This document shows positions 9,994 to 57,765 of a stretch of 64,000 nucleotides of DNA, piece by piece. Within the stretch, counting starts at the first letter, position 1. Each line of letters begins with the position of its first letter. The stretch covers positions 107,621 to 171,620 of the forward strand of contig JBAZJV010000002.1 of assembly GCA_041651095.1 (NCBI GenBank), given 5' to 3'. The notes under the pieces were generated by a model that saw only the letters and a list, made by a program, of their open reading frames with translations, was not told where the DNA came from and made no database searches. This DNA is from Patescibacteria group bacterium. GTDB taxonomy: Bacteria > Patescibacteriota > Patescibacteriia > Patescibacteriales > UBA12465. A program made the translations under genes and the position numbers.

Positions 9994-10020
9994 AGGCGAG
10001 CAGCTGGCTAGAGTATACGG

Positions 10021-17563: not shown

Positions 17564-17569
17564 AAACGC

Positions 17570-35756: not shown

Positions 35757-38243
35757 TTAAATCAGCTTTTTCAGATATTGGCCGGTATAGCTCTTGGCGA
35801 CCTTGGCCACATCCACCGGCGTGCCGGCCGCGACCAGATAGCCGCCGGTGTCCCCGCCTTCCGGCCCCAGGTCAATGATCCAATCTACGGATTTGATGAC
35901 GTCAAAATTATGTTCGATGATAAGCACCGTATTGCCCTGGTCGACCAGCAGATTAAGAACCTTAAGCAGGCGATCGATATCGGCGAAATGCAAACCGGTG
36001 GTCGGTTCGTCCAGGATATACAGGGTCTGGCCGGTCGCCCGGCGCGATAATTCCGTCGCCAGCTTGATGCGCTGCGCTTCGCCGCCGGAAAAAGTCGTCG
36101 CGCTCTGGCCCAGCTTGAGATAACCCAGGCCGACTTCCGATAGGGTTTTCAATTTCTGGCTGATGGCGGAGTGATCCTTAAAAAAAGGCTGTGCTTCATC
36201 GATCGTCATTTCCAGCACTTCGAAGATATTCTTCCCTCGATATAAGACGTCCAGGACCTTAGCTTGGAATTTCTTGCCGCCGCAAACATCGCAGGTCAGA
36301 TAAACATCGGATAAGAATTGCATTTCCACCTTGATCACGCCGTCGCCGGCGCAATTCTCACAGCGCCCGCCCGGCACATTGAAAGAAAAATGGCCGGCGC
36401 CCAGCCCTTTGACCCGGGCTTCCGGCAAAGCGGCGAACAAATCGCGGATATAAGTGAACAGTCCGGTATAGGTCGCCGGATTGGACCGCGGCGTGCGGCC
36501 GATAGGCGACTGATCGATGTCAATAACCTTGTCGATAAACTCCAGGCCGCTCAGTTCGCGATGCGCGCCCGGTTCGACCTTGGCGCGATAGAATTTGCGG
36601 CTCAAAGCCTTGGCCAGGATGTCGCTCATGAGCGTCGATTTGCCGGAACCGGAAACGCCGGTAATCGCCACCAATTTGCCGAGCGGTATCGCTACGTCGA
36701 TATTCTTAAGATTATGTTCGGTCGCCCCGCTGATCTTGATCGCCCGGCCGTTCCCGGATCGGAATTTGGCCGGCAACTTGATTTCCCGGGCGCCGGACAA
36801 ATAGGCACCGGTCAAGGAAGCCGGACATTTCTTGATCTCACTCGGAGTGCCGGTGAACAGGATCCGGCCGCCGGCGTCGCCGGCACCCGGTCCGACGTCT
36901 ATCAGCCAGTCCGCCGCCAGCATCGTGGCGGCATCATGCTCGACGACGATCACGGTGTTGCCGTTATCGCGCAATTTTTTCAAAGTCGCGATCAATTTAT
37001 CGTTATCCCGCTGATGTAAACCGATCGAGGGTTCATCCAATACGTAAAGGACGCCACTTAGGGTCGAGCCGACTTGGGAGGCCAGGCGGATACGCTGGGC
37101 CTCGCCGCCGGACAAAGTCGCGGCCGAACGGCTTAAAGTCAGATAATCCAATCCGACATTAGCCAGGAAGCCGAGATTGTCCAAGATCTCTTTCAATATC
37201 GGCTCGACGACTTTAGCCTGCCCGTTCCCAACTTCATTTTTCAGCCAATTGCCCAGCAGAACGCGCAAATCCCGAATACTCCGATCGGTAATGTCAATAA
37301 TCGACAGATCGTTAAGCCGCACGGCCAGCGATTCCGGTTTCAATCGGGCGCCTTGGCAGGCCGGGCAACGCGAAACCCGCATCACCTTTTCCACTTCCTG
37401 TTTGACGAAACTAGATTTGGTTTCCTGATATTTTTCTTCCAAATACGGCAGGAGGCCGGAAAACTTGCCGTCGCCGCGCAAAATAAGTTCCTGCTGAGCC
37501 GCGCTCAATTCTTTGACGGACGGCCGCAGGCTGAAATTATGGCGATTCGCCAATTCATTTAATTCCGCCAGCAGGCCGTTGCCGTTCAAGTTAGCGTGGG
37601 ACAACGGTTTGATCGCCCCTTCCAGGATGCTCAGATTAAAGTTGAAAACCAAGTTGGGATCGATTTCCGATTTGGTGCCCAGGCCGCCGCAGGCCGGACA
37701 AGCGCCGTGGCCGGAGTTGAAGGAAAAATCGCGCGGCTCCAGATCCGGTCGCCGGTAATCGCAATTCGGACAAGTATAGAAGCGGTCGATCTTAGTCGAT
37801 TTGACGGTGCGGCCGCGTACCAGTCTGGTATTTTTTTTCTCGGCTGACGCTTTCTTCAGCTTCACGCGGCACTGCGGGCAATACGGCGCGCCGGCCCGGG
37901 CGTACAGCAGGCGCAAATAATCATAAATTTCCGTGATCGTGCCGACCGTTGACCGCGGATTATGCTGGGTCGTCCGCTGATCGATGGAAATGGCCGGCGA
38001 CAGGCCCTCGATCAGGTCGATATCCGGCTTGTCCATCAAGCCGACGAATTGCCGGGCATACGAAGACAGGGACTCGACATAACGACGTTGTCCCTCCGCA
38101 TAGATCGTATCAAAAGCCAAGGAAGATTTGCCGGAACCGGACAGGCCGGTCACGACGATGAATTGGTCGCGAGGAATGTCCAGATCGATGTTTTTCAAAT
38201 TATTGGTCCTGGCTCCTCTGAGCTTGATGAATTTTCCGGCCAT
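35757..38243 (-). CDS. uvrA: Excinuclease ABC subunit A-like ATPase. It is a short form (828 aa) lacking the UvrB-binding domain, like class II UvrA.
   Basis: Evidence includes [54 protein letters not shown], two ABC modules ([12 protein letters not shown] and [12 protein letters not shown]), and Zn modules. I set the start to the ATG at 38243 because the upstream extension in the track has no homology. Confidence 0.9.
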
Positions 38244-38329
38244 GCTGGTAGCTGGGCGAGGCCTAAGGCCGCACCTTAAAAAATAATCAGGTATATTATA
38301 GGGGAAAAGGACGGAAAAAACAAGCCCCG

Positions 38330-39367
38330 TCAAAATAGAGGATAAAAAAGTTTCAATACGGCGACCAAGATCCGGTCGGACCAGCTGATTCGGCGGCGGC
38401 TCGTCTCGAAAGCGACGGCGCCTTGACGCCATTGGTCAATGATCCTTCGCAAATCATTGACCAGATTCTTCTGCCGGAAAAAAATGCCGGCCTCGATATT
38501 CCAATTGAAGGATAAGACGTCCATGTTTTGGGAACCGACGACCCCCTCTTCCCCGTCGATCAGCATTATTTTGGCATGATTCATCGCCGGCATCAGGTAA
38601 AACTTGACGCCCAAAGCCGACAGGCGACAGGCATTCAGATAATTGACTTTATTCAGAGGCTTGACGTCAGTATCGTTGGGAATCAGTATTTCCACCTGGA
38701 CGCCGCGCTGACAAGCATTCTCCAGGGCGGCAATCAGCCAGGTCGGCGGCAACAGATACGGCGTGACGATGCTGATGGACTGCCGCGCCTCGCTGATTTT
38801 TTTCTTATAATAATCGCTGATGAGATAGCGGGGCGGCGTGCCGGGCCAATTATCCACGATCCAGGCTTTGATTTTCTGCACCAGCGGCAAGCGGCTGTAT
38901 CGCAGGATGCTCTCCTTATGGCCGCCGACAATCTCATAGGTATAAGCGAATGATTTCAGGATCGGCCGGATGATCCGGCCCTGCAGCCTAATCTGCAAAT
39001 CCAGCCAATGTCTGGTTTCTTCTATAATATTGACGCCGCCGAGAAAAGCGATCTGATTATCGATGATCAGGATCTTGCGGTGAGTGCGGTGGAGCCAGCG
39101 ATTAAAAAAAATGAATTCCGCGCCGGCGTTCCGCAGCGCGGCGGCGGCGGACGGCCGGAGGGAGGAGCTGCCGAAAGAATCGGCAATGATCACTACTTCC
39201 AATCCGGCCCGAGCCTTATCTTGCAGCAGCTTCAGAAAGTCATGGGTCGCCTGCGTATCATCCAAAAAAGTATACATCTCCAAATAGATGGATTTTTGGG
39301 CGGCGGCCATGGCGGCGAACATGCCGTTCCAGGCGCTCTGCGAAGTGGTATATAAGCGGTATTTCAT
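38330..39367 (-). CDS. Phospholipase D / cardiolipin-synthase-like protein with two HKD motifs and no TM segments.
   Basis: The first HKD motif is [18 protein letters not shown] and the second is [18 protein letters not shown]. Confidence 0.85.
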
Positions 39368-39379
39368 GCTGATCTGGCG

Positions 39380-40180
39380 TTAAACCAATAATTTCTTAAT
39401 GGCCGGAATGGCCTGGTCGGCGGCGGCTTCGCCCACGCGGATAATGGCGTCGGCCGTCTGCCGGTCGAAATATTTGGCCAGGCTGCTCTTTTTGATGAAG
39501 GCCGAAAGATCCGGTTCGATAACGACATCGGCCCGATGCATGACCGACTGGGACAAATTGGCCAGCATGGTAATCATGCTGCGCGCCAGAACATTGGACG
39601 AAGTATAGGGCTGCGCCGATAATTCATTATGGTGATAAAGATTGACGCCGATAGTGATGTCCGCGCCCAGTTTGGCCACCAGATCGACCGGTACCGGATC
39701 GCTCATCCCGCCGTCAGCCAAAGGCTGCCCATCGTAATCGACGGATTTAAAAACCAAGGGCACGGCACAACTGGCCCGGACGGCCAGAGCGACCGAACCG
39801 CTATCCAGGACGAATAAACGGCCGGTAGATAAGTCCGTCGCGGCGATATTGAGCGGTAACGACAAATCCGCAAAGTCGGCCCGATACAATTTCTTTTCCA
39901 AGTAGGCTTGGAATTTATCGCCGCTGATCAGACCGCGGTTCCAGCCAAAATCCAGCAGCAAGGACATATTCTCTTGCTGGTTATCGATCAGATCTTTCTC
40001 CAGCGTGCTGATGTCTTTGAACCGGGCGTAATAAGCCGCCGCCCAAGCGCCGATACTGGCTCCGCTCAGAAAGTCAATCGGGATATGGTGTTTTTCCAGG
40101 GAACGGATGACGCCGATATGGGCGAAGCCGCGATAGGCGCCGGAGCCTAGAGCTAGGCCGACGGTTTTGCGAACAGGCAT
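39380..40180 (-). CDS. Patatin-like phospholipase.
   Basis: The oxyanion motif is GSGAYRGFAHIGV, the nucleophile elbow is GASIGA (G-x-S-x-G), and the catalytic Asp lies in LADGGMSDPVP. Confidence 0.88.
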   Translation of the reverse strand: MPVRKTVGLALGSGAYRGFAHIGVIRSLEKHHIPIDFLSGASIGAWAAAYYARFKDISTLEKDLIDNQQENMSLLLDFGWNRGLISGDKFQAYLEKKLYRADFADLSLPLNIAATDLSTGRLFVLDSGSVALAVRASCAVPLVFKSVDYDGQPLADGGMSDPVPVDLVAKLGADITIGVNLYHHNELSAQPYTSSNVLARSMITMLANLSQSVMHRADVVIEPDLSAFIKKSSLAKYFDRQTADAIIRVGEAAADQAIPAIKKLLV

Positions 40181-40301
40181 AGATTATGGCTTAAGAGATT
40201 ATTTACTACCAGATTATAGCACTATTCCGGCTGTTTTTTAAGGTGACAAAAAACCCGGCGCCAGCCGGGTCTTCAATTATAATAATCAAGATTGCGCCGA
40301 A

Positions 40302-40664
40302 TCAGCGCGCCAGATAGAGCGGGTGCAAAAAATCCGGCTGCCAGCGGACGCTGAGCAACCAGTCGCTGACTGTGCAGCCCGCGGGCTGAGCTTGGTGCTC
40401 GAGAGTCAAAAAATATAAAACGAATAACAATAAGAATAGGGCAAATATCACAAATATAATTTGGGAAAGAAATGCGGTTTTATTCCGCTTAGCACGTGAA
40501 CTGACCATCTTTTGAGCGAAATAGGCAATCAAGCAAGCAACACCAAAAACCAAGCCTAAAATATTAACGTAAAGATGGAATGAGGGCTGACAAGTTACCG
40601 GGCAGTTACTGGCCACTTCGGTGGTCGGCGATATCGGTCCGGAATTGTTGTTAGTAATATACAT
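40302..40664 (-). CDS. Hypothetical small membrane protein (120 aa, 2-3 TM).
   Basis: This hydrophobic ORF in AT-rich DNA is followed on the minus strand by the hairpin gaagacccggc-tggc-gccgggtttttt (about 40248-40272). Confidence 0.5.
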   Translation of the reverse strand: MYITNNNSGPISPTTEVASNCPVTCQPSFHLYVNILGLVFGVACLIAYFAQKMVSSRAKRNKTAFLSQIIFVIFALFLLLFVLYFLTLEHQAQPAGCTVSDWLLSVRWQPDFLHPLYLAR

Positions 40665-40704
40665 ATGATTATAATCTTAAATAAATGACAAATAAACGAC
40701 CGCT

Positions 40705-41487
40705 TCAACCGCCGAGAGCCGCGCCAATATTACGCGTATTCGGCAAATAAGCAAAATTATCGGAATGCGATTGAATAATCGAATACCCTTGACTCGTTAA
40801 TAAATCCTTACATATTTGATCATCACGCGGGCTTAAATGTCTATATTCATAAAGGATCATCTTCGGTTTTATCGTGGCAAAAGGGATGTTCTGGATAATC
40901 TGATAATCATGACCCTCCGTATCGATATGTAACAGGTCGATTTTTCCAACGGCGTATTTTTTAAGCAAGTTCTGAAAAGACATGACCGGAATTCGTTCCG
41001 AAATCAAATGTTTATCAATATTGGGCACTAGACACCTATGTTTTAAGACAACTTCTTTATGAAATGAGCCGAGTTGCTCATACCAGCGAGGATTGCCGGG
41101 CTCATTATTCTTTTCAACCCTATAGAAAGTTTCCACTCCATCGTGGTCGCTAATTGCTATGTTCTCAAAAGCTATATCAGGCGAATTTCGATAATTTTCT
41201 TTTAATTCTTCAAACAAATATTGCACCGGCTCAACCAGCAAGCCATGCCATTTATATATTTTTGAAAAATAATAGAGAATGGCTCCGGCCTTACCGTTAT
41301 TGGAGCCGATTTGCACCCAAAAAAAATTGCTGTTACTTGATAAACGGACTTTAATTAGCCAATAAATCTTTAAATACTTCAATTTCCTAAAGATGACGAG
41401 CATCTGCCTGAACATAAATTGCGAAGAGATTATAATGTAAAAATGAATAATAATTTTATTATAACAATAAACTAAAAACCCCGCCAT
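40705..41487 (-). CDS. FkbM-family SAM-dependent methyltransferase.
   Basis: Evidence includes FFWVQIGSNNGKAG (the VDIGAN-like SAM motif) and IDLLHIDTEGHDYQIIQ, typical of FkbM. The true start is probably internal to the annotated ORF. Confidence 0.7.
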   Translation of the reverse strand: MAGFLVYCYNKIIIHFYIIISSQFMFRQMLVIFRKLKYLKIYWLIKVRLSSNSNFFWVQIGSNNGKAGAILYYFSKIYKWHGLLVEPVQYLFEELKENYRNSPDIAFENIAISDHDGVETFYRVEKNNEPGNPRWYEQLGSFHKEVVLKHRCLVPNIDKHLISERIPVMSFQNLLKKYAVGKIDLLHIDTEGHDYQIIQNIPFATIKPKMILYEYRHLSPRDDQICKDLLTSQGYSIIQSHSDNFAYLPNTRNIGAALGG

Positions 41488-41582
41488 AACCAGCGAGGCT
41501 TAAACTTTGTAGTCTTAAGGTCTGAAATTTATCACAATTTTGAGGGGATTATAGCTAAAATCTGGAAATGGGCGAAAATTTG

Positions 41583-41611
41583 TTGACATTTAGCTATTAT
41601 GGGTATATACT
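41583..41611 (+). promoter_or_regulatory. Sigma70-type promoter for the 41671..46478 operon.
   Basis: TTGACA, a 17-nt spacer and TATACT lie about 60 nt upstream of the first ATG. Confidence 0.6.
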
Positions 41612-41670
41612 CATAATAGGCGATAGATAAAGGTCGAATTGCTATTATAAAAAATATTAATAATAAATTT

Positions 41671-41913
41671 ATGCCAAATATGAATGGAACTGGCCCTATG
41701 GGTCAAGGACCACAAACTGGTCGAGGGATGGGCCGCTGTGCTAGTGGAGAGAGAATGTTTTGGTGCGGACGAAGAATGATGGGTCGAGGTGGCTTTAAGC
41801 TATCTTTGTCGTCTGAAGACCAACTAAAGGCTTTAGATGAAGAGGAAAAAGCATTGTTATCAGACTTGGAAGCGGTAAAAAAGGAAAAAGAGGCTTTAAA
41901 AAGCCAAAAATAA
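41671..41913 (+). CDS. DUF5320-family protein.
   Basis: The N-terminus is MPNMNGTGPMGQGPQTGRGMGRC (the G-T-G-P-x-G-x-G-P-x-T-G-R-G signature). The C-terminal coiled coil is LDEEEKALLSDLEAVKKEKEALK. Confidence 0.65.
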   Translation: MPNMNGTGPMGQGPQTGRGMGRCASGERMFWCGRRMMGRGGFKLSLSSEDQLKALDEEEKALLSDLEAVKKEKEALKSQK

Positions 41914-42008
41914 AAGAAGGCATGGAAACCGGCCTCTTAATAAAAAGGGGCCGGAGAGCTTTCTCTTATAATTATGAATTAACAAATAATAGATAGTTTC
42001 TCAAGATT

Positions 42009-42284
42009 ATGCCCAGACCGAGATTGCGCCGAAAAATAGAATTTAATCCCGAGATAACATATTTCAAACCCCAAGGTCTTCCTATGAGGAATCTTGAAAT
42101 AGTTGAATTGACGATGGAAGAAATAGAGGCATATCGCCTTAGACATTTAAGTAATTTAGACCAGAAAGAAGCGGCTCAAAAAATGCATACCTCGGCTAGT
42201 ACATATCAAAGGATTATTTATTCTGCTTATGGAAAAATTGCTGACGCCCTGATAAATGGTAAGGCTATAAAAGTTATTAAATAG
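42009..42284 (+). CDS. DUF134 (UPF0251) family putative DNA-binding protein.
   Basis: Evidence is MPRPRLRRKIEFNPEITYFKPQG...ELTMEEIEAYRLRHLSNLDQKEAAQKMHTSASTYQRII, a sigma70 region 4-like HTH. Confidence 0.7.
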   Translation: MPRPRLRRKIEFNPEITYFKPQGLPMRNLEIVELTMEEIEAYRLRHLSNLDQKEAAQKMHTSASTYQRIIYSAYGKIADALINGKAIKVIK

Positions 42285-42288
42285 ATTT

Positions 42289-43344
42289 ATGAAAAAAATA
42301 ATATTTTTTATCGGTATTTCATTTATTTTTACTTTTTTAGTAAAAGATGTTTCTGCTCAAGAAAATAAAGCGATTTTATATTACGGCAATGGCTGCCCCC
42401 ATTGCGCTGAAGTTGAAGAATTTATTAAAAATAATGAATTTTCTTTTTCTATCGAACAAAAAGAAATATACAACAACAAAATTAATGCGGGAGAGTTTAA
42501 TAGAGTTTGTTCGGACCAGGGGATTAGCCTTATGAATAGAGGGGTGCCTTTTCTTTATGCTGAAAATGAGTGTTTTGTTGGCGATAAACAAATTATTTCT
42601 TATTTACAAACTAAACAAAAACAAAATAATGAAGTTTTGCCTAATGAAGATGTAATTAATACAAAAGGAAGCGTTTCGGAATCATTAACTTTGCCAATTT
42701 TAATTGGCGCCGCTCTGGTTGATTCAATTAATCCTTGTGAGTTTGCCGTTTTACTAATTTTAATTGCGACTATTTTGGCATCTGGGGATAGAAAAAGAGC
42801 TTTGCTTTCAGGTTTGGCTTATTCAGCTTCAATTTTTATTTCCTACTTCTTGATGGGTATGGGTTTATATTCAGTAATCTCTAGTTTTGGAACGCCAGTT
42901 ATATTTATGAAAATAATTGGCGGTATCGCGATTTTGATCGGGTTATTTAATGTTAAAGATTATTTTTGGTATGGAAAAGGGTTTTTAATGGAAGTCCCTT
43001 TGAGCTGGCGGCCAAAAATGAAATCTTTGGTCAGGTCAATCACCGGCCCTCTCAGCGCTTTTTTAATCGGTTTCGTGGTGAGCTTATTCTTGCTGCCTTG
43101 TACTAGCGGCCCATATATCGTTATTTTAGGAATGCTGGGGCACGGAGAAACAATGATGCGAGCTGTTTGGCTATTACTCTTATATAATTTCATATTTGTC
43201 TTGCCGATGATTATTATCAGTATTGGCATGTATTTTGGCATGAATGTTGAAAAGGCCGAAGAAACAAGAAGCAAGAATTTAAAAGTATTGCATCTAATCG
43301 CCGGGGTCATTATGATTATAATGGGAGTAGTATTAGTTTTATAA
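42289..43344 (+). CDS. Fusion of a thioredoxin/glutaredoxin-like domain with a CcdA/DsbD-type thiol-disulfide transmembrane electron transporter.
   Basis: After a signal peptide comes YYGNGCPHCAEVEEFI (CxxC). The membrane domain has NPCEFAVLLILI and LLPCTSGPYIV, the two conserved Cys of CcdA. Confidence 0.75.
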   Translation: MKKIIFFIGISFIFTFLVKDVSAQENKAILYYGNGCPHCAEVEEFIKNNEFSFSIEQKEIYNNKINAGEFNRVCSDQGISLMNRGVPFLYAENECFVGDKQIISYLQTKQKQNNEVLPNEDVINTKGSVSESLTLPILIGAALVDSINPCEFAVLLILIATILASGDRKRALLSGLAYSASIFISYFLMGMGLYSVISSFGTPVIFMKIIGGIAILIGLFNVKDYFWYGKGFLMEVPLSWRPKMKSLVRSITGPLSAFLIGFVVSLFLLPCTSGPYIVILGMLGHGETMMRAVWLLLLYNFIFVLPMIIISIGMYFGMNVEKAEETRSKNLKVLHLIAGVIMIIMGVVLVL

Positions 43345-43378
43345 AATTTAAAATAATAAAATAAATAACTATAAATTT

Positions 43379-43777
43379 ATGAAAGGATTTAACACAAACA
43401 TAGAAAAAGCGACTTTAGAAAATAATTATTTTCGTAAAGTTCTTTATTCAGGAAAACATAGCCAATTAGTCTTAATGTCCTTAAAACCAAATGAAGAAAT
43501 TGGCTTAGAAATTCATTCTGAGAATGATCAGTTTTTCCGTTTTGAACAAGGTCAAGGAAAATGTTTAATTGATGGGAATGAATATCTGGTTGAAGATGGC
43601 TCGGCCATAATTGTTCCGGCCGGAGCCGAACATAATATTATAAATATTTCTGAAACGGAAGAACTAAAGCTCTATACTATTTATTCTCCTGCTCACCATA
43701 AAGATCAAATTGTTAGATTGACCAAGGAAGAGGCGGAAACTAATGATGAAGAATTTGATGGTAAAACAACAGAATAA
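43379..43777 (+). CDS. Cupin domain protein.
   Basis: The two cupin motifs are GLEIHSENDQFFRFEQGQG and AIIVPAGAEHNIIN. Confidence 0.75.
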   Translation: MKGFNTNIEKATLENNYFRKVLYSGKHSQLVLMSLKPNEEIGLEIHSENDQFFRFEQGQGKCLIDGNEYLVEDGSAIIVPAGAEHNIINISETEELKLYTIYSPAHHKDQIVRLTKEEAETNDEEFDGKTTE

Positions 43778-43805
43778 TATTTTAATTTATTAAAATTAAT
43801 AAAAA

Positions 43806-44570
43806 ATGGAGTCCGATAAAATTAGAAATTGTTTATTAGTCTTCTCCGGAAAAGGCGGTGTTGGTAAATCTACTGTAGCTGTAAATTTAGCCATGATTTT
43901 AGCTAAGAAGGGGTTAAAAGTTGGATTGCTTGATGCTGATATTCATGGACCCAATTCAGCCTTAATGCTTGGCGTAACCGAAAAGAAAATTTTTTCTTGT
44001 GGTGAAGACTTTATCTTGCCGGTTGAAATAAATAAAAATTTATCCTTGGTTTCTATTGCTTATTTCATACCAAAAACTGACACCCCGGTAATCTGGCGCG
44101 GTCCAGCCAAAATGAAAATCATTGAAAAATTTGTGAAAGAGGTAAATTGGGGTAATTTGGATTGGTTGATAGTTGACGCTCCGCCAGGGACTGGAGATGA
44201 ACCGTTATCAATCGCTCAATTGCTGCCTAAATCTAAAGCAATTATAGTAACTACCCCGCAAGATGTTTCCTTGCTTGATTCGACTAAGGCGATTAATTTT
44301 GCTAAAGAGTTAAAATTAAAGATAGCTGGGGTAATCGAAAATATGAGCGGTTTAATTTGCCCTCATTGTAAAAAAACAATAGACTTATTTAAGCATGATG
44401 GCGGCAAAAAAATTGCCAAAAAATATAAAATACCATTTTTAGGTTCTGTCCCCGTAGATCCAGAAATGGTTATTTCCGGTGATAGTGGGAATCCGATTGT
44501 TATAAATAATAAATCTAAAATAACTAAAATATTTTCTTCGATTGTTGATAAATTATTAGTTAAAAAATAA
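43806..44570 (+). CDS. Mrp/NBP35 (ApbC) family P-loop ATPase, a putative Fe-S cluster carrier.
   Basis: The deviant Walker A is SGKGGVGKSTVAVNLA. DAPPGTGDE and the CPHC motif (LICPHCKK) are also present. Confidence 0.88.
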   Translation: MESDKIRNCLLVFSGKGGVGKSTVAVNLAMILAKKGLKVGLLDADIHGPNSALMLGVTEKKIFSCGEDFILPVEINKNLSLVSIAYFIPKTDTPVIWRGPAKMKIIEKFVKEVNWGNLDWLIVDAPPGTGDEPLSIAQLLPKSKAIIVTTPQDVSLLDSTKAINFAKELKLKIAGVIENMSGLICPHCKKTIDLFKHDGGKKIAKKYKIPFLGSVPVDPEMVISGDSGNPIVINNKSKITKIFSSIVDKLLVKK

Positions 44571-44575
44571 AAAAC

Positions 44576-45316
44576 ATGATTACTTTACTTTTTATTGTAT
44601 TGGCGTGCTTGGCAATTAGTCTTTGTGTTTGGATAGCAGTTATTTTTTTGTATTTTAAAAAAGAAACGCTTCAAAAAATAACATTGTTTTTGGTTTCTTT
44701 ATCAGCTGGCGCTTTAATGGGCGGAGCTTTTTTACATCTTTTGCCCGAAGCGGCGCAAGAAATAGAAACAAATAAATTATATTTAATAGTATTGATCGCT
44801 TTCATTTCTTTCTTTTTCATGGAAAAGTTGTTATTTTGGCGACACTGTCATAAAGAGAATTGCCTAATTCACACTTTCGGCTATATGAATTTAGTCGGCG
44901 ATTCTCTACATAATTTTATTGACGGCCTAGTCATTGCCAGCACATTTTTAATTGATATAAAATTAGGTTTAGTAACAACATTAGCGATAGCGATACACGA
45001 AATTCCGCAGGAGATAGGCGACTTCGGGGTTTTGATTCATGCGGGATTTAACAAAAAGAAAGCTTTGATAATAAACTATCTTGTTGCCTTAACCGTTGTT
45101 ATTGGCGGAGTGGTCGGCTATTTTGCCTCCTTTAAGCTTCATAATATTATTCCATATTTGTTGCCGTTTGCCGCCGGTGGATTTATTTATATTGCTGCCT
45201 CCGATTTAATGCCAGAACTAAGAAAGGAAACTAACTTAAAGAAATCCTTCGGTTCTTTTGTAATCTTTATTTTGGGGATAGTTTTAATGCTGCTAGTTAA
45301 ACTGATTAATGGGTAG
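44576..45316 (+). CDS. ZIP-family divalent metal transporter (ZupT/GufA-like).
   Basis: Evidence includes HNFIDGLVIAS, AIAIHEIPQEIGDFGVLI and about 8 TM helices. Confidence 0.85.
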   Translation: MITLLFIVLACLAISLCVWIAVIFLYFKKETLQKITLFLVSLSAGALMGGAFLHLLPEAAQEIETNKLYLIVLIAFISFFFMEKLLFWRHCHKENCLIHTFGYMNLVGDSLHNFIDGLVIASTFLIDIKLGLVTTLAIAIHEIPQEIGDFGVLIHAGFNKKKALIINYLVALTVVIGGVVGYFASFKLHNIIPYLLPFAAGGFIYIAASDLMPELRKETNLKKSFGSFVIFILGIVLMLLVKLING

Positions 45317-45371
45317 GGAATGTAAAGTTAGGCATAGCCGTTAGTGCTAATATTTAAGAATAAATTAATTT

Positions 45372-46478
45372 ATGAATAAATTAAAAAAAATTTATACATT
45401 GCTAGCACTTATGGTTCTGCTGTTTCCGCAATTATCAAAAGCGCAAGAAGTTAAAGAAGATGTCGCTAATTTTAAGGCGAAGGTAGTGGATATTTTGCAG
45501 GTTGAGGAAAAAACCAGAGAAGACGGAACTAAATTTAAACAACAAAACCTAAAACTTCTCGGCTTAGCGGGCGCTTGGAAAGACAAAGAAATAATTTATA
45601 ACGGCATATCTGATATCGAGGTAGCTAATGCCAACTTTTACAAGGTCGGCGATAATGTTTATGTGGATGGGCATACCGACGAATTTGGCCAAGATATTTT
45701 TTATGTAACAGATTTTGTTAGAAGCGGCTACCTTTATATTTTATTTATTATTTTTGTCTTCGCCGTTTTATTGGTGGGGGGAACAAAAGGATTCAAGGCT
45801 TTACTTGGCTTGTTTCTGAGCTTTGCAGTTATTATAAAATTTATTTTGCCGCAAATACTGAATGGTCGAGACCCCTTTTTAATTAGCTTGCTTGGCGGTT
45901 TAGTAATTTTAGGAATAATAATTTATTTGACGGAAGGGTTTAAAAGAAAATCCCATATTGCCGTTTTGTCGGTTTTAATTTCCTTATCGGCAACCTTGAT
46001 GCTATCAATAATTTTCACAAAATTATCTAAACTATCGGGATTGGCCCAAGAAGAAGCGGCGTTTCTGATCGGTGCGGGCAACATTGAAATTAATTTTCAG
46101 GGCTTATTATTAGCCGGTTTTATTATTGGAGCGATTGGAGTTTTAGACGATATCATTGTCGGCCAAATTGAAGCGGTCGAGCAAATCAAGGAGGCTAATC
46201 CGAACTTGCCCACCAAAAAAGTATTTTCATTAGCTTATAAGGTCGGCAATACTCACTTGGGCGCCATTGTAAATACTTTATTCCTTACTTATGCGGGGGC
46301 CGCTTTGCCACTACTTTTATTATTTATTTTGAACCAGGATTCAGGGATAACATTCAATAGATTGATAAATACGGAAATAGTCAGCACAGAAATAGTTAGA
46401 ACGTTGGTCGGCAGTATCGGCGTAATGCTATCCATGCCGATCGCTACTTTTTTAGCGGCTATTAAGTTAAAAAAATAA
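45372..46478 (+). CDS. YibE/F-family membrane protein.
   Basis: A signal peptide is followed by the extracytoplasmic segment FKAKVVDILQVEEKTREDGTKFKQQNLKL...FYVTDFVRSGYL and then about 7 TM helices (FILPQILNG...). This matches my recollection of the YibE/F architecture. Confidence 0.7.
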   Translation: MNKLKKIYTLLALMVLLFPQLSKAQEVKEDVANFKAKVVDILQVEEKTREDGTKFKQQNLKLLGLAGAWKDKEIIYNGISDIEVANANFYKVGDNVYVDGHTDEFGQDIFYVTDFVRSGYLYILFIIFVFAVLLVGGTKGFKALLGLFLSFAVIIKFILPQILNGRDPFLISLLGGLVILGIIIYLTEGFKRKSHIAVLSVLISLSATLMLSIIFTKLSKLSGLAQEEAAFLIGAGNIEINFQGLLLAGFIIGAIGVLDDIIVGQIEAVEQIKEANPNLPTKKVFSLAYKVGNTHLGAIVNTLFLTYAGAALPLLLLFILNQDSGITFNRLINTEIVSTEIVRTLVGSIGVMLSMPIATFLAAIKLKK

Positions 46479-46511
46479 ATAATTGGATTCTATTGTCTTG
46501 GTCGTGTAACT

Positions 46512-46540
46512 AAAAAACTCCAAACAAGTTGGAGTTTTTT
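46512..46540. terminator. Bidirectional intrinsic terminator at the operon end and downstream of tRNA-Glu.
   Basis: The hairpin is aaaaaactccaa-acaag-ttggagtttttt. Confidence 0.75.
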
Positions 46541-46546
46541 ATTACG

Positions 46547-46618
46547 TAGTCCCTAGGGGAATCGAACCCCTGTTAACAGGATGAAAACCTGTCGTCCTAA
46601 CCACTAGACGAAGGGACC
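46547..46618 (-). tRNA. tRNA-Glu (anticodon UUC).
   Basis: The reverse complement is GGTCCCTTCGTCTAGTGGTTAGGACGACAGGTTTTCATCCTGTTAACAGGGGTTCGATTCCCCTAGGGACTA. I folded the cloverleaf by hand, with anticodon loop TTTTCAT. It closely resembles E. coli tRNA-Glu. CCA is not encoded. Confidence 0.9.
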
Positions 46619-46705
46619 GCCTAAAAATTCAGTTCTATTCTATAAACAAACCGACTTTCTGTCAAGAAATTTGTCTTTTCCGTAAAATCCCCTACAATAC
46701 TATAT

Positions 46706-47773
46706 ATGTATATCCTGGGTATAGAAACCAGCTGCGATGAAAGCGCCGCCTCCGTCATTAAAGCCGATGCCAAAACCGGCCGGCTTAAAGTATTATCCAA
46801 TGTCATCGCATCGCAGATCGAAATCCATAAAAAATACGGTGGCGTGGTGCCGGAAGTGGCGGCGCGCGAGCATGTCCTAAATATTTTACCGGTGATTAAT
46901 GAGGCGCTAACAAAAGCCAAGATAAAACCTGCGCAGTTAACGGCCATCGGGGTGACTAAGGGCCCAGGACTCATCACTTCCCTGATTACCGGCGTGGAAA
47001 CGGTACGTACCTTGGCTTACGTTTGGAAGAAACCGGTCGTAGAAGTAAACCACATAGATGGACATATTTATGCCAATTTTATCGAAGCTGGCCACTTGAT
47101 TAAATATCCGGCCGTCATTTTGACTGTTTCCGGCGGGCATACGATACTATTGACCATGGGGCGTACCGGCAAAATAAAAATCATCGGCGAAACCAGGGAT
47201 GATGCGGCCGGTGAGGCGTATGATAAAGCCGCTAAGATGATGGGGCTCGGTTATCCAGGCGGACCGATCATTGCGCGTTATGCCGACCAGCATCAGGCGA
47301 CGCTCGCCCAAAGATCCATCAGTAATAAAACGGAGCGGATCAAGGCTATAGAATTGCCTCGCCCGATGATGTATTCCGCTGATTTTGATTTTTCTTTCTC
47401 CGGCCTCAAGACGGCGTTGCTATATCAGCTGCAAAAAGACCAACGATGGAAACGGTGGATTCCGCAATATTGTTTTGAATACCAAAATGCCATTATCGAC
47501 ATCCTGGTACACAAGACTATCGGGGCCGCCCGGAAATTCCGGGCCAAAACAGTAATGTTGGCCGGCGGCGTCAGCGCCAATACAGCGTTGCGTTCCCGGC
47601 TGGCTGAGGCGGTGCGGACCAAGCTGACTGGCGCTAATTTCTTAGTCCCCAAATTTGAATACACCACCGATAATGCCGCCATGATCGCGGCGGCGGCCTA
47701 TTACCGCTTACGGTGGAAAAAAACGATTCCCTTTCAACGGCTGCGGGTTGACGCCAGTTTACAATTAAAATAA
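46706..47773 (+). CDS. tsaD: tRNA N6-adenosine threonylcarbamoyltransferase (Kae1/TsaD).
   Basis: Evidence includes MYILGIETSCDESAASVI, GGVVPEVAAREH, SGGHT and GGVSAN. Confidence 0.95.
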   Translation: MYILGIETSCDESAASVIKADAKTGRLKVLSNVIASQIEIHKKYGGVVPEVAAREHVLNILPVINEALTKAKIKPAQLTAIGVTKGPGLITSLITGVETVRTLAYVWKKPVVEVNHIDGHIYANFIEAGHLIKYPAVILTVSGGHTILLTMGRTGKIKIIGETRDDAAGEAYDKAAKMMGLGYPGGPIIARYADQHQATLAQRSISNKTERIKAIELPRPMMYSADFDFSFSGLKTALLYQLQKDQRWKRWIPQYCFEYQNAIIDILVHKTIGAARKFRAKTVMLAGGVSANTALRSRLAEAVRTKLTGANFLVPKFEYTTDNAAMIAAAAYYRLRWKKTIPFQRLRVDASLQLK

Positions 47774-48017: not shown

Positions 48018-49604
48018 ATGGACGGACAGAACAAAATCCTTAAGGAAATGATTAATGGTTACGGGACAGGTTTCCCCGATTTAGAATCCTTATTCGGTAT
48101 GCGCCCATACCAAGACCAGCGACAAAAAATGCTGTCCCCTGTCTCACTAATCGGTAGATACGGAAATAGCGTCTCTTTTATGGAAAACATTACTTCCGGA
48201 AAAGCCATCGGAATATCTAGATTTGATGTAATCAAACGCTACCTGTTCGCTCTCAGTAAATTTATGGACGAGCAGAAGAATATCCCGGATGAAAAAAAGA
48301 TAATTCACGGCTTAACCGCCGCGGAAGAAGAAGAAATCAATAAACTGTGCAATACCTTGGAAGAAGTTTTCCAGGCAGAACAGATTGAAAAATTCACTGA
48401 GCACGACACCGCGGCGGCCGGTGATTTCGCAAAGCTAAGGCTGGCGACCAGATTCCAAGATCTAGCCACACATCTGGAGGCCATATGCTTTGCTGAAACT
48501 TCCGAAGACACGATGAGTATTGTCTTCGGATGTATGGCTAATAAGTTGATATTGGGTCACCTAACGCATAAATTAGCGACTTTCTGCGGAGATATGCTAG
48601 GGTTCGTCGATTCGCACGAAGAAAACGGCCCATTGTTATTGCCGGAACTGACTCACCTACAACCAGCGGAACCGACAACGCACCGCATCAAGGTTACGAC
48701 CCGCGTGCAAGCTATCATAACCCTGCTTCACGCCCTATCCAAGCCATTTTCCGGTAAAATGGGCGGCGCCATTGGCAATCTGACTTGTCATTACGCTGCT
48801 TACCCCGATGTTAACTGGGAAAAATTCGCTCGGAAATATGTGGAAAGCTTCGGTCTGCAGTATGAAAAATATACCGACCAATGCGTTTCATATATTAACG
48901 AAGCTCAACATTTTACAACGATTGCCCATATCCTCACGGAAATAATCAAGCTGACGGAAGATTTCATCGATATGGCTTCAGCGCCAGCCCAATTTTTCAT
49001 TAAAAAGAAAAAAAAGGGCACCAAAGGCTCATCCATTATGCCCAACAAATCTAATGCCTGGGCCATGGAGGGCGCGGTCGCTATGCTTAAAAAATCTCGG
49101 AATGCCTTGATGTTCCTAGCGGAGACCCTTCCCGGCTACCCTCAGGCCGGCAATATGGCTCGATCATTTCTGTTCCGAGAACTCGGCACAGATCTTATGC
49201 CAATATTTATCGGACTTGACCGAATAACCAAGGAAATGAAAAATTACGTTCCCTGCCCAAAAAAAATAGAAGCCTTTTTTAATGAATATCCAGGTATGGC
49301 CGGCAGCGCCTTGCAGACGGTTATGAAACGGATGAAAATATCCGGCGATGCTTACCGAGTAATCGAAAGTATCGCTATCAATCCGGACGGTTCATATGCT
49401 AATAGCGAAGATTTCCAAACCGGTCTAGAACAAAAAATGGTTGAATTACAACTTTCTAACGAGCAAAAAACAGAACTCTTAAATATGTTAAATCCTAACT
49501 TTTTGGTGGCTCCAGCTCAGCGCAAAGCCGAACACGATCTTCCTCTGATGTCTATAGAATTACTGGGCTTTAAAAATTATGCCCAAAAATTCATGAATTC
49601 ATGA
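48018..49604 (+). CDS. Divergent adenylosuccinate lyase-like protein (fumarate lyase / Lyase_1 superfamily, PurB-like).
   Basis: It aligns by eye to E. coli PurB: LSPVSLIGRYGNSVS (SPVDGRYG), TEHDTAAA (TNHDVKA), FAETSEDT (FACTSEDI), LTHLQPAEP (RTHGQPATP), GKMGGAIGNLTCHYAAYPDVNWEKF ([25 protein letters not shown]), and the signature GSSIMPNKSNAW (GSSTMPHKVNPI). Confidence 0.7.
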   Translation: MDGQNKILKEMINGYGTGFPDLESLFGMRPYQDQRQKMLSPVSLIGRYGNSVSFMENITSGKAIGISRFDVIKRYLFALSKFMDEQKNIPDEKKIIHGLTAAEEEEINKLCNTLEEVFQAEQIEKFTEHDTAAAGDFAKLRLATRFQDLATHLEAICFAETSEDTMSIVFGCMANKLILGHLTHKLATFCGDMLGFVDSHEENGPLLLPELTHLQPAEPTTHRIKVTTRVQAIITLLHALSKPFSGKMGGAIGNLTCHYAAYPDVNWEKFARKYVESFGLQYEKYTDQCVSYINEAQHFTTIAHILTEIIKLTEDFIDMASAPAQFFIKKKKKGTKGSSIMPNKSNAWAMEGAVAMLKKSRNALMFLAETLPGYPQAGNMARSFLFRELGTDLMPIFIGLDRITKEMKNYVPCPKKIEAFFNEYPGMAGSALQTVMKRMKISGDAYRVIESIAINPDGSYANSEDFQTGLEQKMVELQLSNEQKTELLNMLNPNFLVAPAQRKAEHDLPLMSIELLGFKNYAQKFMNS

Positions 49605-49617
49605 ATTAAAGTCAATT

Positions 49618-49647
49618 AAAGGCGACTGTAAAAACAGCCGCCTTTTT
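49618..49647 (+). terminator. Intrinsic terminator after the PurB-like gene.
   Basis: The hairpin is aaaggcgactgt-aaaa-acagccgccttttt, with one mismatch. Confidence 0.65.
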
Positions 49648-49668
49648 CATAAATTAAACTCAAAAATC

Positions 49669-49697
49669 TGTGGATAACTTGTGTTTTTTGTGCATAA
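49669..49697. promoter_or_regulatory. Pair of DnaA-box-like 9-mers.
   Basis: TGTGGATAA (49669-49677) is the exact complement of the TTATCCACA consensus. TGTGCATAA (49689-49697) has one mismatch. Both are in the same orientation, 20 nt apart. Confidence 0.4.
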
Positions 49698-49816
49698 AAA
49701 GCCATTTTAAGTCTAAACTAGCGTGGACTTAAAATAAAAAAAATTACTAAAAATAGAATATATTTGGCTAAAATTAAATATTTTATCTTTAAATCAAATA
49801 CTTAAGTCTACTATAT

Positions 49817-49845
49817 TTGACCCTGATATGACAAAGTGCTATAAT
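49817..49845 (+). promoter_or_regulatory. Near-consensus sigma70 promoter with no ORF downstream.
   Basis: TTGACC (49817-49822), a 17-nt spacer and TATAAT (49840-49845). Confidence 0.65.
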
Positions 49846-49851
49846 AGGAGT

Positions 49852-50177
49852 AGGTTCTTTTACTAACTCTTGTCTAATTGCCAACGCTGACGTGGCAAGG
49901 ATATACGGAGCAGATTAATCATCGTGCTAAAAGAATAAAATTTGATAAGAACCAAAAAGAAACTCTTACTAAATTTCATTCAAAATTAGCAAAATTTATA
50001 AAAAAACCATATTAATCCTGCAAAGAGTTGGTAGAACGTACTCTTCAAGTCAGCCAAGAGTCTAAATATCCCCAATAAAAACAAAATATTCAATTATCGG
50101 GGATGAGGCTCATGCGGCGCCTATTATTTATTTATCTTTATTTTAATAAAGAGGGGCCCGACATGGGCCTCTTTTTA
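49852..50177 (+). ncRNA. Candidate non-coding RNA of unknown class, about 325 nt, delimited by a promoter and an intrinsic terminator.
   Basis: The transcription start is predicted about 7 nt after the TATAAT box. The terminator is agagg(gg)ccc-gacat-gggcctctttttatt at 50150-50177. There is no ORF of 60 aa or more and no SD-ATG pair. Internal hairpins are present, for example ttgcca-acgctgacg-tggcaa. ychF has its own promoter further downstream (TTGGCA-17-TATACT, about 50198-50226). Confidence 0.45.
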
Positions 50178-50247
50178 TTCCGTAAAAACAGCAAAATTTG
50201 GCAAAAAACTAATTCTCGGCTATACTCGGAAACGTAAACTAATCATT

Positions 50248-57221: not shown

Positions 57222-57308
57222 GGAGAGGTGACTGAGTGGTTGAAAGTACCGCTCTCGAAAAGCGGCAAGGGTGAAAGCCCTTCGAGGGTTCGAATCCCTC
57301 CCTCTCCG
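57222..57308 (+). tRNA. tRNA-Ser (anticodon CGA).
   Basis: The acceptor is GGAGAGG/CCTCTCC and the anticodon stem is CCGCT/AGCGG with loop CTCGAAA. There is a long variable arm (aaggg-tgaaag-ccctt), and the T arm is GAGGG-TTCGAAT-CCCTC. Confidence 0.92.
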
Positions 57309-57396
57309 CAGATTAAAACAGTTCTAATATTAGAGCTGTTTTTTAGTAGAGAGATTGAACTTTGAAACGGTTAGTGCTAATGTTAATATAAATATG
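57296..57396 (+). repeat. Copy A of a roughly 100-bp module made of the tRNA-Ser 3' end, a terminator hairpin, a promoter-like block and a start codon.
   Basis: The sequence is CCTCTCCGCAGATTAAAA, a hairpin (cagttcta..tagagctg), TTTTT, GATTGAACTTTGAAACGG..GTGCTAATGTTAATATAA and ATG. Compare copy B. Confidence 0.7.
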
Positions 57397-57732: not shown

Positions 57733-57765
57733 AAACTAATGCTGGAAGTGATAACCGTTCCCAGT

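Follow-up and report, generated by a model that had tools for sequence, protein, structure and literature searches.

A modular, probably self-regulated DUF134/DUF5320 cassette with metal and redox cargo in a low-GC tract of a Patescibacteria genome

How does a sharply bounded, AT-rich tract with seven closely spaced genes come to lie in the GC-richer backbone of a Patescibacteria genome, and what controls the genes that it carries? The tract in question lies between about 40 and 47 kb of a 64,000-nt stretch (the window) of contig JBAZJV010000002.1, from the metagenome-assembled genome (MAG) GCA_041651095.1. A first-pass annotation, made from the letters alone, had described it as a laterally acquired island ending at a tRNA-Glu gene and carrying a self-regulated operon for metal and thiol homeostasis. 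The analysis presented here leads us to regard it, with a modest degree of confidence, as a modular and horizontally exchanged regulatory cassette typical of Patescibacteria, in which the small proteins DUF134 and DUF5320 would autoregulate a cargo of metal and redox genes, and which is not integrated at the tRNA. The invariant core of the cassette consists of a promoter whose -10 box lies within a palindrome, a leader hairpin bearing AAAGGUCG, DUF5320, a terminator-like hairpin and DUF134.

The control region of 183 bp precedes the DUF5320 gene. Its best plus-strand promoter match is a sigma-70-type promoter (41583-41611, plus strand) with TTGACA at 41583-88 and TATACT at 41606-11, 17 nt apart; promoter, length of the control region and gene spacing (gaps of 95, 4, 34, 28, 5 and 55 nt) are as first described. 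A palindromic operator had been suggested as something to search for within 41488-41670, and one is present there and deeply conserved, in support of a self-regulated module. This putative DUF134 operator is a 24-bp near-perfect palindrome, TATTATGGGTATATACTCATAATA (41595-41618, no strand assigned), which is self-complementary at 22 of its 24 positions, straddles the -10 box and occurs once in the 64-kb window, where the expected number is 0. Related loci, designated here by L numbers, have the same arrangement. When the upstream regions of the window and of L002-L005 are aligned, TTGACA is invariant, the spacer ends in TTATGGGT, and TATA(C/T)T is followed by CATAAT; these four loci were found through the Mrp protein and not through DNA, and L005 was aligned upstream of the ferritin-like gene that precedes its DUF5320. 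The palindrome is in fact present in every Patescibacteria locus that was reached by protein similarity, that is in L002-L005 and also in L144 (twice), L146, L149 and L151. The last four were reached through DUF134 or DUF5320 protein identity, and their palindromes, including one before each of the two units of L144, have at most one mismatch to the pattern TTATGGGTNTATAYTCAWWAT that was used in the wider scan described below. The stretch of about 75 nt before the -35 box (41508-41582) is 81-84% identical among the window, L002, L149, L151 and L077, though not in L146, and could hold an upstream activator site or an UP-type element.

Scanning of Joint Genome Institute (JGI) metagenome contigs with this pattern gave at least 120 stretches, 118 of them with distinct leaders. 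The counts that follow for gene order, cargo and leaders refer to the matches listed, and long loci are those with at least 2.5 kb of downstream sequence (n=49). Two features that form no part of the scan pattern accompany the palindrome: a -35 box with at least five of six matches stands at a spacing of 16-18 nt in 99 of 110 leaders (80 being exact), and an ATGCC start lies 30-170 nt downstream in 96 of 110, opening the DUF5320 frame MP..(D/N)GTGP. In 75 of 99 loci the unit opens with DUF5320. DUF134 takes second place in 51 of 85, and 43 of the 49 long loci contain it. At least 118 distinct metagenomic loci, with variable metal, thiol and Fe-S cargo, have this control region ahead of DUF5320-DUF134. 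The palindrome always has one orientation, upstream of DUF5320, and keeps a constant position relative to the -35 and -10 boxes.

Most leaders contain, in the stretch from the -10 box to the ATG, a hairpin with AAAGGTCG in its loop or on its 3' side. In the window this 5'-leader RNA hairpin occupies 41619-41643 (plus strand), with the stem GGCGAU (41619-24) / AUUGCU (41638-43) and the loop AAAGGUCG at 41629-36. The stems vary freely in sequence and yet remain complementary. In a MAFFT alignment of 42 leaders all 7 of the 7 stem pairs show compensatory changes, 80% of the alignment cells pair as compared with about 40% when the partner strand is slid, and the covariation score was reached by none of 500 shuffles. 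These 42 leaders had been chosen beforehand for having stems, and the test was repeated on all 73 distinct leaders, otherwise unselected, whose core lies 6 nt or more past CAWWAT. In 74% of them the core is enclosed by a perfect stem of 5 bp or longer, against 9.8% with shuffled flanks, and the share falls to 47% under the pairing rules of the opposite strand. G.U pairs account for 61 of 406 pairs in the leader stems and, since such pairs are strand-specific, the structure is one of sense-strand RNA. In about 14 leaders there is no stem, and the core lies right at the predicted 5' end; this suggests a need for the core to be accessible as a single strand.

R1, a covariance model made from the leader alignment, has a sole significant match in the window, at 41612-41646 (43.2 bits, E 1e-5). 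It finds no further leader copy in the whole window, a weak minus-strand match at 41551-41601 (E 0.49) being a mirror of the palindrome. R1 passes E<0.01 in 30 leaders of 100 related loci, a low recall because the model is short. A search of 40000-47000 against Rfam 15 at E<=1 returned only the tRNA and matched neither the leader nor the hairpin between DUF5320 and DUF134. Known roles for the leader were also considered and set aside. A preQ1-like or other small riboswitch class is without Rfam support, the putative partner for pairing of the AAAGGUCG loop with the DUF5320 coding region is not conserved, and a Shine-Dalgarno function is at odds with a loop lying 30-60 nt from the ATG.

The second structured element of the core is a GC-rich hairpin in the DUF5320/DUF134 intergenic region (41915-41964, plus strand; inner stem 41929-38/41945-54), which is bordered by an A-tract and, on its 3' side, by a T-rich tail. 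It is conserved in folds of at least 30 intergenic regions, with compensatory changes in nine of ten pairs (RNAalifold), and looks like an intrinsic terminator or attenuator. In many loci a TGnTATAAT-like box lies about 15 nt before the DUF134 ATG, and there may therefore be an internal promoter that gives a near-leaderless DUF134 mRNA. A conserved TCAA is also seen in many loci some 6-15 nt before that ATG (the equivalent region of the window is 41965-42008).

The palindrome is not confined to Patescibacteria in its general form. Four loci reached solely by protein similarity, L018 (an archaeal MAG), L153 (a 1.3-Mb contig of a MAG), L154 (Aenigmatarchaeota) and L155 (Woesearchaeota-type), contain exactly one ATG-N10-CAT palindrome each, with at least 14 of 16 positions self-complementary and the form ATGAATAT(A/G)TATTCAT. 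It is a sister palindrome (ATGAATATATATTCAT) of DPANN-type archaeal loci, standing 25-85 nt upstream of the DUF5320 start in all four, with a second, degenerate copy alongside in three; 0.02-0.11 such palindromes per locus are expected under a first-order Markov null. Both palindromes share the core ATGnnTATATAnnCAT and differ in their variable dinucleotides, which are GG/CT in Patescibacteria and AA/TT in the archaeal-type loci. The recognition helix of DUF134 differs in parallel, reading STYQRI(I/L)YSAY in Patescibacteria and PTFHRL(I/L)LSAR in the sister-palindrome loci. This co-variation of palindrome and helix, which is correlative, is the best evidence we have that DUF134 may read the palindrome. 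The long archaeal forms of DUF134 carry an extra Gly/Arg-rich stretch and a zinc-ribbon tail, CxCPxCG...PC...CPxC. The same Cys-rich tail, of the type GxGPGGxCxCPxCG...G(I/V/T)PC...CPxC, is also found at the C-terminus of a cation diffusion facilitator (CDF) in L005 (8672-9721). It may be a portable metal-sensing module, and its sharing ties Gly/Arg-rich cysteine modules to the DUF134/DUF5320 system.

The DUF134/UPF0251 protein of the window (PF02001; 91 aa, 42009-42284, plus strand; Pfam 69.6 bits against a cut-off of 27) is 78-93% identical to its counterparts within its clade (35 sampled sequences) and belongs to a large family, with 1062 homologues at E<=1e-5 and at least 3,457 clusters at 50% identity. 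Its AlphaFold2 model (mean predicted local distance difference test score, pLDDT, 78.7) begins with some 25 disordered residues, after which come a strand, three helices and another strand at the end. The best Foldseek matches in the PDB are to region 4, the -35-binding region, of extracytoplasmic function (ECF) sigma factors, several of them solved together with an anti-sigma factor, and these are followed by the DNA-binding domains of DeoR and GerE. The root-mean-square deviation from sigma region 4 is 0.7-0.8 A over about 50 residues; the E-values reach only 0.04-0.3 because the DUF134 domain is so small. DUF134 can accordingly be described, from its predicted fold, as a putative sigma-70-region-4-like helix-turn-helix (HTH) protein. 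Most homologues contain a cysteine at position 7, and the DUF134 of the window has none.

DUF5320 (PF17253; 80 aa, 41671-41913, plus strand; Pfam 37.1 bits against a cut-off of 27) begins with an invariant motif, M-P-x-x-(D/N)-G-T-G-P-x-G-x-G-P-x-T-G-(R/W)-G-x-G-x-C, in an alignment of 85 sequences. Its Cys23 is present in 100% of the 85 and is the sole cysteine in 37 of them. Beyond the motif there is a variable Gly/Arg/Trp-rich linker and a conserved C-terminal coiled coil, and in the AlphaFold2 monomer the N-terminal motif has a pLDDT below 50 and is predicted to be disordered, while a helix is formed by residues 48-78. No sequence relatives of either protein were found in the PDB, and the open-access literature searched for functional studies of DUF134/UPF0251/COG1342 or DUF5320 yielded only incidental mentions.

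Taken with the anatomy of the control region, it is probable that a DUF134 dimer binds the palindrome, occludes the -10 box and in this way autoregulates the unit, so that repression would be the direction of control. A more tentative suggestion is that DUF5320 serves as the signal-sensing partner, through Cys23 and oligomerisation. It would sense by thiol, metal or Fe-S chemistry at Cys23, and would either act on the sigma-4-like fold of DUF134 in the manner of an anti-sigma factor or bind its own AAAGGUCG leader RNA. As to the signal, redox, Fe-S or metal status is perhaps a better candidate than limitation for a single metal, because importers and exporters share the operator and the cargo resembles a PerR-type stress set with Fe-S carriers added; we put this forward as a possibility that falls a little short of even. 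Derepression would then switch on the cargo. The Trx-CcdA protein would export reducing power to its surface thioredoxin domain, ZIP and perhaps YibE/F (which stands beside FeoAB in L004) would import divalent metals, and Mrp would carry Fe-S clusters; the cupin is left without an assigned role.

Several points weigh against this interpretation. The conservation of the palindrome in the 118 metagenomic loci is there by construction, because the palindrome was used to select them, and the assignment of DUF134 to it draws on co-occurrence and on a single contrast in co-variation. A classical metal site is not evident, DUF134 being cysteine-free and DUF5320 having one invariant Cys. Importers (ZIP, Feo, Znu) and exporters (CDF, P-type ATPase) stand behind the same operator, a mixture that is hard to fit to a simple repressor responding to metal limitation. 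It may also be that the palindrome controls mainly DUF5320 and read-through from it, given the terminator-like hairpin and the possible internal promoter before DUF134.

Among the alternatives, the one that survives best, although we consider it unlikely, is that the palindrome and the hairpins are recombination sites of the attC or REP kind, or that the palindrome is bound by a regulator encoded elsewhere, such as Fur or Rrf2. The cassettes are modular, a breakpoint in sequence identity coincides with the operator, an rve integrase, a diversity-generating retroelement (DGR) or a Rep gene is found near some copies, and the palindrome has the ATAAT/ATTAT flavour of a Fur box. No recombinase is consistently linked to the cassettes, however, and homologous recombination within the best-conserved stretch accounts equally well for the breakpoint. 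The constant position of the palindrome relative to the -35 and -10 boxes and its single orientation upstream of DUF5320 are also difficult to reconcile with a recombination site. With regard to another regulator, DUF134 is the only DNA-binding protein that co-occurs consistently, and the variant of the palindrome tracks the variant of the DUF134 recognition helix across domains. Regulation by DUF134 and DUF5320 remains the reading that we prefer.

Comparison with known regulators helps to place the cassette. Like operons of the Fur, Zur and PerR type, it has an AT-rich palindromic operator over the -10 box of an operon that appears to be autoregulated. The PerR regulon mixes metal importers, exporters, peroxiredoxin, thioredoxin and ferritin-like genes, and the cargo of the cassettes does the same. 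The putative regulator differs in being a cysteine-free, 91-aa sigma-4-like HTH protein that is not of the Fur family, and no Fur/Zur/PerR-family regulator domain was found in the cassette with Pfam; the cassette adds a small protein as obligatory partner, and its leader RNA is structured. A second comparison is with thiol switches made of an ECF sigma factor and a zinc-binding anti-sigma factor, such as SigR-RsrA, since the modelled fold of DUF134 superposes on sigma region 4, including structures complexed with an anti-sigma factor, DUF5320 is small, helical, Cys-containing and encoded beside DUF134, and thioredoxin genes are a frequent cargo. In spite of this DUF134 cannot be a sigma factor because it is without sigma region 2, and DUF5320 has one invariant Cys and not the HxxxCxxC motif. 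An interaction between DUF5320 and DUF134 is, by this analogy, conjectured.

The genes that follow DUF134 in the window agree with the families first proposed for them, all seven calls for the operon, DUF5320 and DUF134 included, being upheld by Pfam or, for Trx-CcdA, by a weaker NCBIfam match together with topology and cysteine positions. The Trx-CcdA gene (42289-43344, plus strand; NCBIfam, hydropathy) encodes a fusion of a signal anchor, a thioredoxin-like domain and a six-transmembrane (TM) transporter of the CcdA/DsbD type. The thioredoxin-like domain is extracytoplasmic with the active site C36PHC39, the six TM segments lie within residues 137-351, and Cys150 and Cys271 fall in the first and fourth of them according to hydropathy. 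Its profile scores are under the curated cut-offs (DsbD_TM PF02683, 23.5 bits against 27.1; NCBIfam DsbD, 37.8 against 330, E 9e-10), and it is for this reason regarded as a divergent relative of CcdA/DsbD. It resembles CcdA-ResA and ScsB/C in having a six-TM, two-Cys core fused to an extracytoplasmic CxxC thioredoxin fold; in sister cassettes a small cytoplasmic thioredoxin with WCPGC is encoded immediately upstream. In contrast to those systems its active site is CPHC, as in DsbA, it is a single polypeptide with a Pfam score below the cut-off, and it is linked to metal transporters and not to cytochrome c maturation.

Downstream of it lie a Cupin_2 protein of 132 aa (43379-43777, plus strand; Pfam 53 bits) and an Mrp/NBP35-type Fe-S carrier ATPase of 254 aa (43806-44570, plus strand; PF10609, NUBPL/ParA, 317 bits). 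The latter has a deviant Walker A, SGKGGVGKST, at residues 14-23 and C185PHC188, and the P-loop domain is the only one present. On these motifs it can be assigned to the Mrp/NBP35 Fe-S carrier ATPase family, which is defined by a deviant Walker A GKGGxGK[ST] and a CxxC (PMC6345978). Next is a ZupT-like ZIP divalent-metal transporter (PF02535; 44576-45316, plus strand; Pfam 154.3 bits against a cut-off of 35.1) with a His/Cys-rich loop formed by H90, C91, H92, C96 and H99; its nearest NCBIfam model is ZupT, at E 1e-15 and under the cut-off of that model. The last gene encodes a YibE/F-family membrane protein (45372-46478, plus strand; Pfam YibE_F 217 bits) with an N-terminal extracytoplasmic domain and about seven TM segments; the literature searched on this family offered nothing of use.

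The related loci show how variable this cargo is. A scan with the Mrp protein over one genome per GTDB species gave Patescibacteria MAGs at 70-85% identity and then Thermoplasmata and other archaea at no more than 56%, and the operon type is native to Patescibacteria. L002 has the same seven genes. In L003 the order is DUF5320-DUF134-ZIP-Mrp-Trx-Trx/DsbD-like-ZIP2-YibE/F, in L004 it is DUF5320-DUF134-ZIP-Mrp-FeoA-FeoB-YibE/F, and in L005, which was checked with Pfam, it is ferritin-like-DUF5320-ZIP-Trx-Trx/DsbD-like-NifX-like (x2)-peroxiredoxin-MinD/ferredoxin ATPase-CDF-DUF134-Mrp. L146 has DUF5320-DUF134-TrxCcdA-DUF2202 in an unrelated context, in a genome of GC 0.33; L149 has all seven genes with different flanks; L144 has two tandem DUF5320-DUF134 units (7936-11339 and 15677-17906), each with its own operator, one accompanied by a peroxiredoxin and the other by Trx-CcdA; and L151 has three cassette genes between DnaB and Fmt in a genome with a GC content at third codon positions (GC3) of about 0.25. 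Some of these loci have further genes of note. In L144 a DGR (bAvd and reverse transcriptase) and the rve integrase lie 5-7 kb downstream. Downstream of the cassette in L149 (16967-19050) are a restriction endonuclease, RE_R_Pab1, and a REP_ORF2-G2P replication initiator, which hint at a possible plasmid or phage origin of the region. L003 (14322-17111) has, convergent with the end of its cassette, a gene for a 929-aa protein with PHP, SMC_N and AAA_21 domains that looks like a defence ATPase and is also found in L126.

Among the 49 long loci, cargo genes comprise Trx-DsbD-like (17), CDF (12), NifX-like (8), MinD/ferredoxin ATPase (8), YibE/F (8), ZIP (7), ABC ATPase (5), small thioredoxin (5), Mrp (4), P-type ATPase (3), ArsR (3), ABC-3 permease (3) and ZnuA-like (2); peroxiredoxin, ferritin-like and FeoA genes are also found. 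The theme of metal, thiol and Fe-S maintenance that was first read from the window alone therefore agrees with the cargo of some 50 related cassettes. The proposal of a recurrent DUF5320-DUF134-Mrp core stands for DUF5320-DUF134 but not for Mrp, which is in only four of the 49. Nor is the suggestion supported that this neighbourhood belongs to anaerobic Firmicutes and Archaea: other Patescibacteria are the closest relatives, DPANN-type archaea come after them, and Firmicutes were not seen.

The Fe-S aspect of the cargo invites comparison with the orange protein (ORP) complex of Desulfovibrio, in which Orp3 and Orp4 receive Fe-S clusters from MrpORP (Pardoux et al. 2019, PMC6345978). The nearest NCBIfam model to the Mrp of the window is MrpORP, matched at 343 bits against a cut-off of 450 over profile positions 2-249 of 365, the lifestyle is likewise anaerobic, and sister cassettes carry NifX-like Di-Nase proteins and MinD-type ATPases with ferredoxin inserts. 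Orp3/Orp4/Orp8-type genes occur in the sister cassettes L005, L018 and L155 and in 8 of the 49 long metagenomic loci. The window itself differs from ORP clusters in several ways. Its Mrp consists of the P-loop domain, the C-terminal Di-Nase (NifX-like) domain of MrpORP not being found with the NCBIfam profile; no homologue of Orp3/Orp4 or Orp8 was found in the window with Pfam; its cargo is dominated by membrane transport and thiol export; and its control consists of a sigma-70 promoter, the palindrome and DUF134/DUF5320.

We now turn to the history of the tract. Its composition departs abruptly from the surroundings, as had been claimed, both in GC profiles and in the codon usage of individual genes. 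The GC content of the backbone is about 0.50-0.58, and in 1-kb windows a level of 0.52-0.57 gives way to 0.33-0.36 between 41 and 46 kb. The low-GC tract as a whole (40405-46620, no strand assigned; composition profiles and GC3) has a GC content of about 0.33-0.40 against about 0.53 in the backbone. GC3 is 0.22-0.37 in the seven operon genes, 0.40 in an FkbM gene and 0.53 in a small open reading frame (ORF) to their left, and 0.53-0.73 in most remaining genes of the window. A 200-nt profile puts the right switch at about 46,600-46,700 and the left one at about 40,400, so that the left border is real but falls inside the small ORF 40302-40664 and not at the 40.29 kb first given. The tract is bipartite, and the two parts are unrelated and have different histories: 40.4-41.5 kb, with the small ORF and the FkbM gene, is lineage-specific, and 41508-46484 alone (plus strand) forms the conserved cassette, as a blastn homology block with L002 (80% nucleotide identity), L149 and L077.

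The FkbM-family methyltransferase (40705-41487, minus strand; Pfam 60.9 bits, NCBIfam) and the small ORF (40302-40664, minus strand; 120 aa with two TM segments, from the ORF list and hydropathy) lie outside the conserved unit. The FkbM gene, specific to the lineage of the window, is absent at L002, L149 and L151, and its true start is probably downstream of 41487. The small ORF has no homology to L002 and is not present in relatives, and a terminator hairpin (about 40,250-40,272, minus strand) lies near it. A terminator-like hairpin with a T-run (41476-41501, minus strand) covers exactly the predicted FkbM start codon and aligns with the position of the terminator of L002's own upstream gene; it may be a remnant that marks the left joint of the cassette.

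Of particular importance is L002 (CAZJSQ010000004.1), which is titled 'uncultured Gammaproteobacteria bacterium' and yet carries a Patescibacteria cassette; the MAG is probably mislabelled. Here, as in L091, the operon adjoins the same UvrA-PLD genes as in the window, the UvrA of L002 being 81% and its PLD 69% identical to those of the window. Where the window has its patatin, small ORF and FkbM genes, L002 has an acyltransferase-like gene and a different small membrane protein. The GC contrast is seen in this locus too (GC3 of 0.24-0.42 in the cassette against 0.46-0.55 in the backbone), and L096 shows a similar one. According to the first-pass annotation, syntenic operons in the close relatives would speak against a lateral origin. 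Synteny of this kind exists in part, at L002 with its UvrA-PLD locus, and it points to allelic or modular replacement.

Divergence at synonymous sites (dS, by the Nei-Gojobori method) is very uneven along the operon. Between the window and L146 the first three genes have a dS of 0.29-0.56 and 88-93% nucleotide identity, and between the window and L002 the same three genes have a dS of 0.95-1.59. In sliding windows the window is L146-like (about 0.9) only over 41612-43405, whereas over 41512-41611 it resembles L002 and L149 (0.84) and not L146 (0.54). The break in identity thus sits at the operator and promoter. L002 and L149 have a dS of 0.05 in Mrp, 0.14 in the cupin, 0.19 in ZIP and 1.08 in DUF134, and L002 and L077 are 97-100% identical up to Mrp and unrelated beyond it. 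The closest relatives of DUF134 and DUF5320 are found in other contexts, in genomes of uniformly low GC. The cassette is a mosaic whose modules have been recombined among Patescibacteria of very different GC. The low GC of the cassette in the window, and likewise in L002 and L096, is best read as the result of import from low-GC relatives into a pre-existing operon locus. A lateral origin, as first proposed, fits both the low dS to a cassette from a 33%-GC genome and the mosaic recombination.

An operon of purely vertical, ancestral descent, AT-rich locally through low expression or the codons of membrane proteins while the genome drifted to high GC, is rather less easily maintained, and we judge it improbable. 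It is true that L002 has the operon at the same locus, its proteins being about as similar as those of the backbone, that in L149, as in the window, YchF (83% identical) and tRNA-Cys are no more than 8 kb away from the cassette, and that many relatives are of uniformly low GC, so that low GC could be ancestral. The contrast in GC3 of 0.3 against 0.67 nevertheless holds for the soluble proteins as well (cupin 0.22, Mrp 0.29). The low dS to L146 extends over 41612-43405 only and ends abruptly at the promoter, dS spreads 20-fold between genes of one operon when L002 is compared with L149, and the same cassette modules recur in unrelated contexts. Modular exchange is for its part open to two objections. 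The cassette proteins of L002, at 79-95% identity, are near the 54-81% of the backbone, so that the cassette may be partly vertical; dS between the window and L002 runs from 1.7 to saturation in the backbone and is 0.95-1.67 in the cassette. Furthermore, the difference between backbone and cassette divergence in the comparison with L146 is drawn from GC3 (0.67 vs 0.27), there being no shared backbone gene in the DNA compared. The presence of YchF and tRNA-Cys near the cassette in both the window and L149 suggests a wider zone of recombination or rearrangement.

A classical genomic island, inserted site-specifically at the 3' end of tRNA-Glu as a recent single 6.3-kb block, is very unlikely. 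The abrupt change of composition is certainly reminiscent of tRNA-associated islands, as is the position of tRNA-Glu(ttc) (46546-46618, minus strand; ARAGORN), which lies 67 nt past the right end of the cassette with its 3' end facing the tract, just as first reported. Integration at this gene finds no further support. Neither Pfam nor NCBIfam detected an integrase or recombinase in the nine ORFs of 40.2-46.7 kb. No direct repeat of the tRNA end, as would be expected of an att site, was found at the left border, a search of 39800-47200 giving only short AT-rich chance matches, and this border falls within an ORF of a tract whose two parts have different histories. The operon of L002 stands at the same UvrA-PLD genes, and no tRNA follows the related cassettes examined (none in the next 410 nt of L002 and none adjoining L149, L146, L144 or L151). 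Exchange appears instead to proceed by homologous, modular recombination. An assembly artefact as the source of the GC contrast, with two populations joined in one chimeric contig as can happen in MAGs, is scarcely credible, because L001, a Logan assembly made independently (SRR8542065), matches 43381-46565 at 100% identity and reaches into the tRNA-Glu gene, and L002 and L091 show the same junction between left backbone and low-GC DNA, with a similar contrast in L096.

Other parts of the window show further irregularities of composition. Low-GC3 islets lie at 57222-59178, 25132-25581 and 59887-60270. The first contains three genes directly after tRNA-Ser(cga), with a GC3 of 0.27-0.32, of which one encodes a second Cupin_2 protein, one a DUF218 protein and one is unassigned; the others hold a 149-aa ORF without a Pfam match (GC3 0.31) and a DUF3795 gene (GC3 0.40). 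On the basis of these scattered islets the genome looks mosaic in general. At 48018-51312 a 528-aa Lyase_1-family gene and the housekeeping GTPase YchF have an intermediate GC3 of 0.47. To the left of the tract the UvrA ORF (35757-38432) shares about 100 nt with the PLD-like ORF (38330-39367). As listed it opens with an Arg-rich extension, and its true start is probably further downstream.

An autoregulated operon with a palindromic operator and a stress or metal cargo is of a familiar kind. The regulator pair, the operator, the leader RNA, their conservation from Patescibacteria to DPANN-type archaea and the modular exchange at the control region appear to be undescribed. We tentatively propose that DUF134/DUF5320, the palindrome and the AAAGGUCG hairpin could constitute an unrecognised regulatory system common to Patescibacteria and DPANN-type archaea, both of them ultra-small anaerobic radiations. 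In such a system a one-Cys, Gly/Arg-rich coiled-coil sensor, anti-sigma-like or leader-binding, would control a sigma-4-like repressor and thereby the homeostasis of metals, thiols and Fe-S clusters (ORP-type). The system would travel as a plug-in cassette, with a conserved control region that might also serve as a recombination joint. The mosaic pattern, with compositionally foreign operons at conserved loci without integrases, matters for the prediction of genomic islands. DUF134 and DUF5320 gain a concrete operator, a predicted regulon, a candidate sensor residue in Cys23 and a new structured leader RNA, and these predictions can be tested in vitro without cultivating the organisms. To our knowledge almost nothing is known of gene regulation in Patescibacteria and DPANN archaea, and a cis-element found in more than 100 loci and across a domain boundary offers a rare handle on it.

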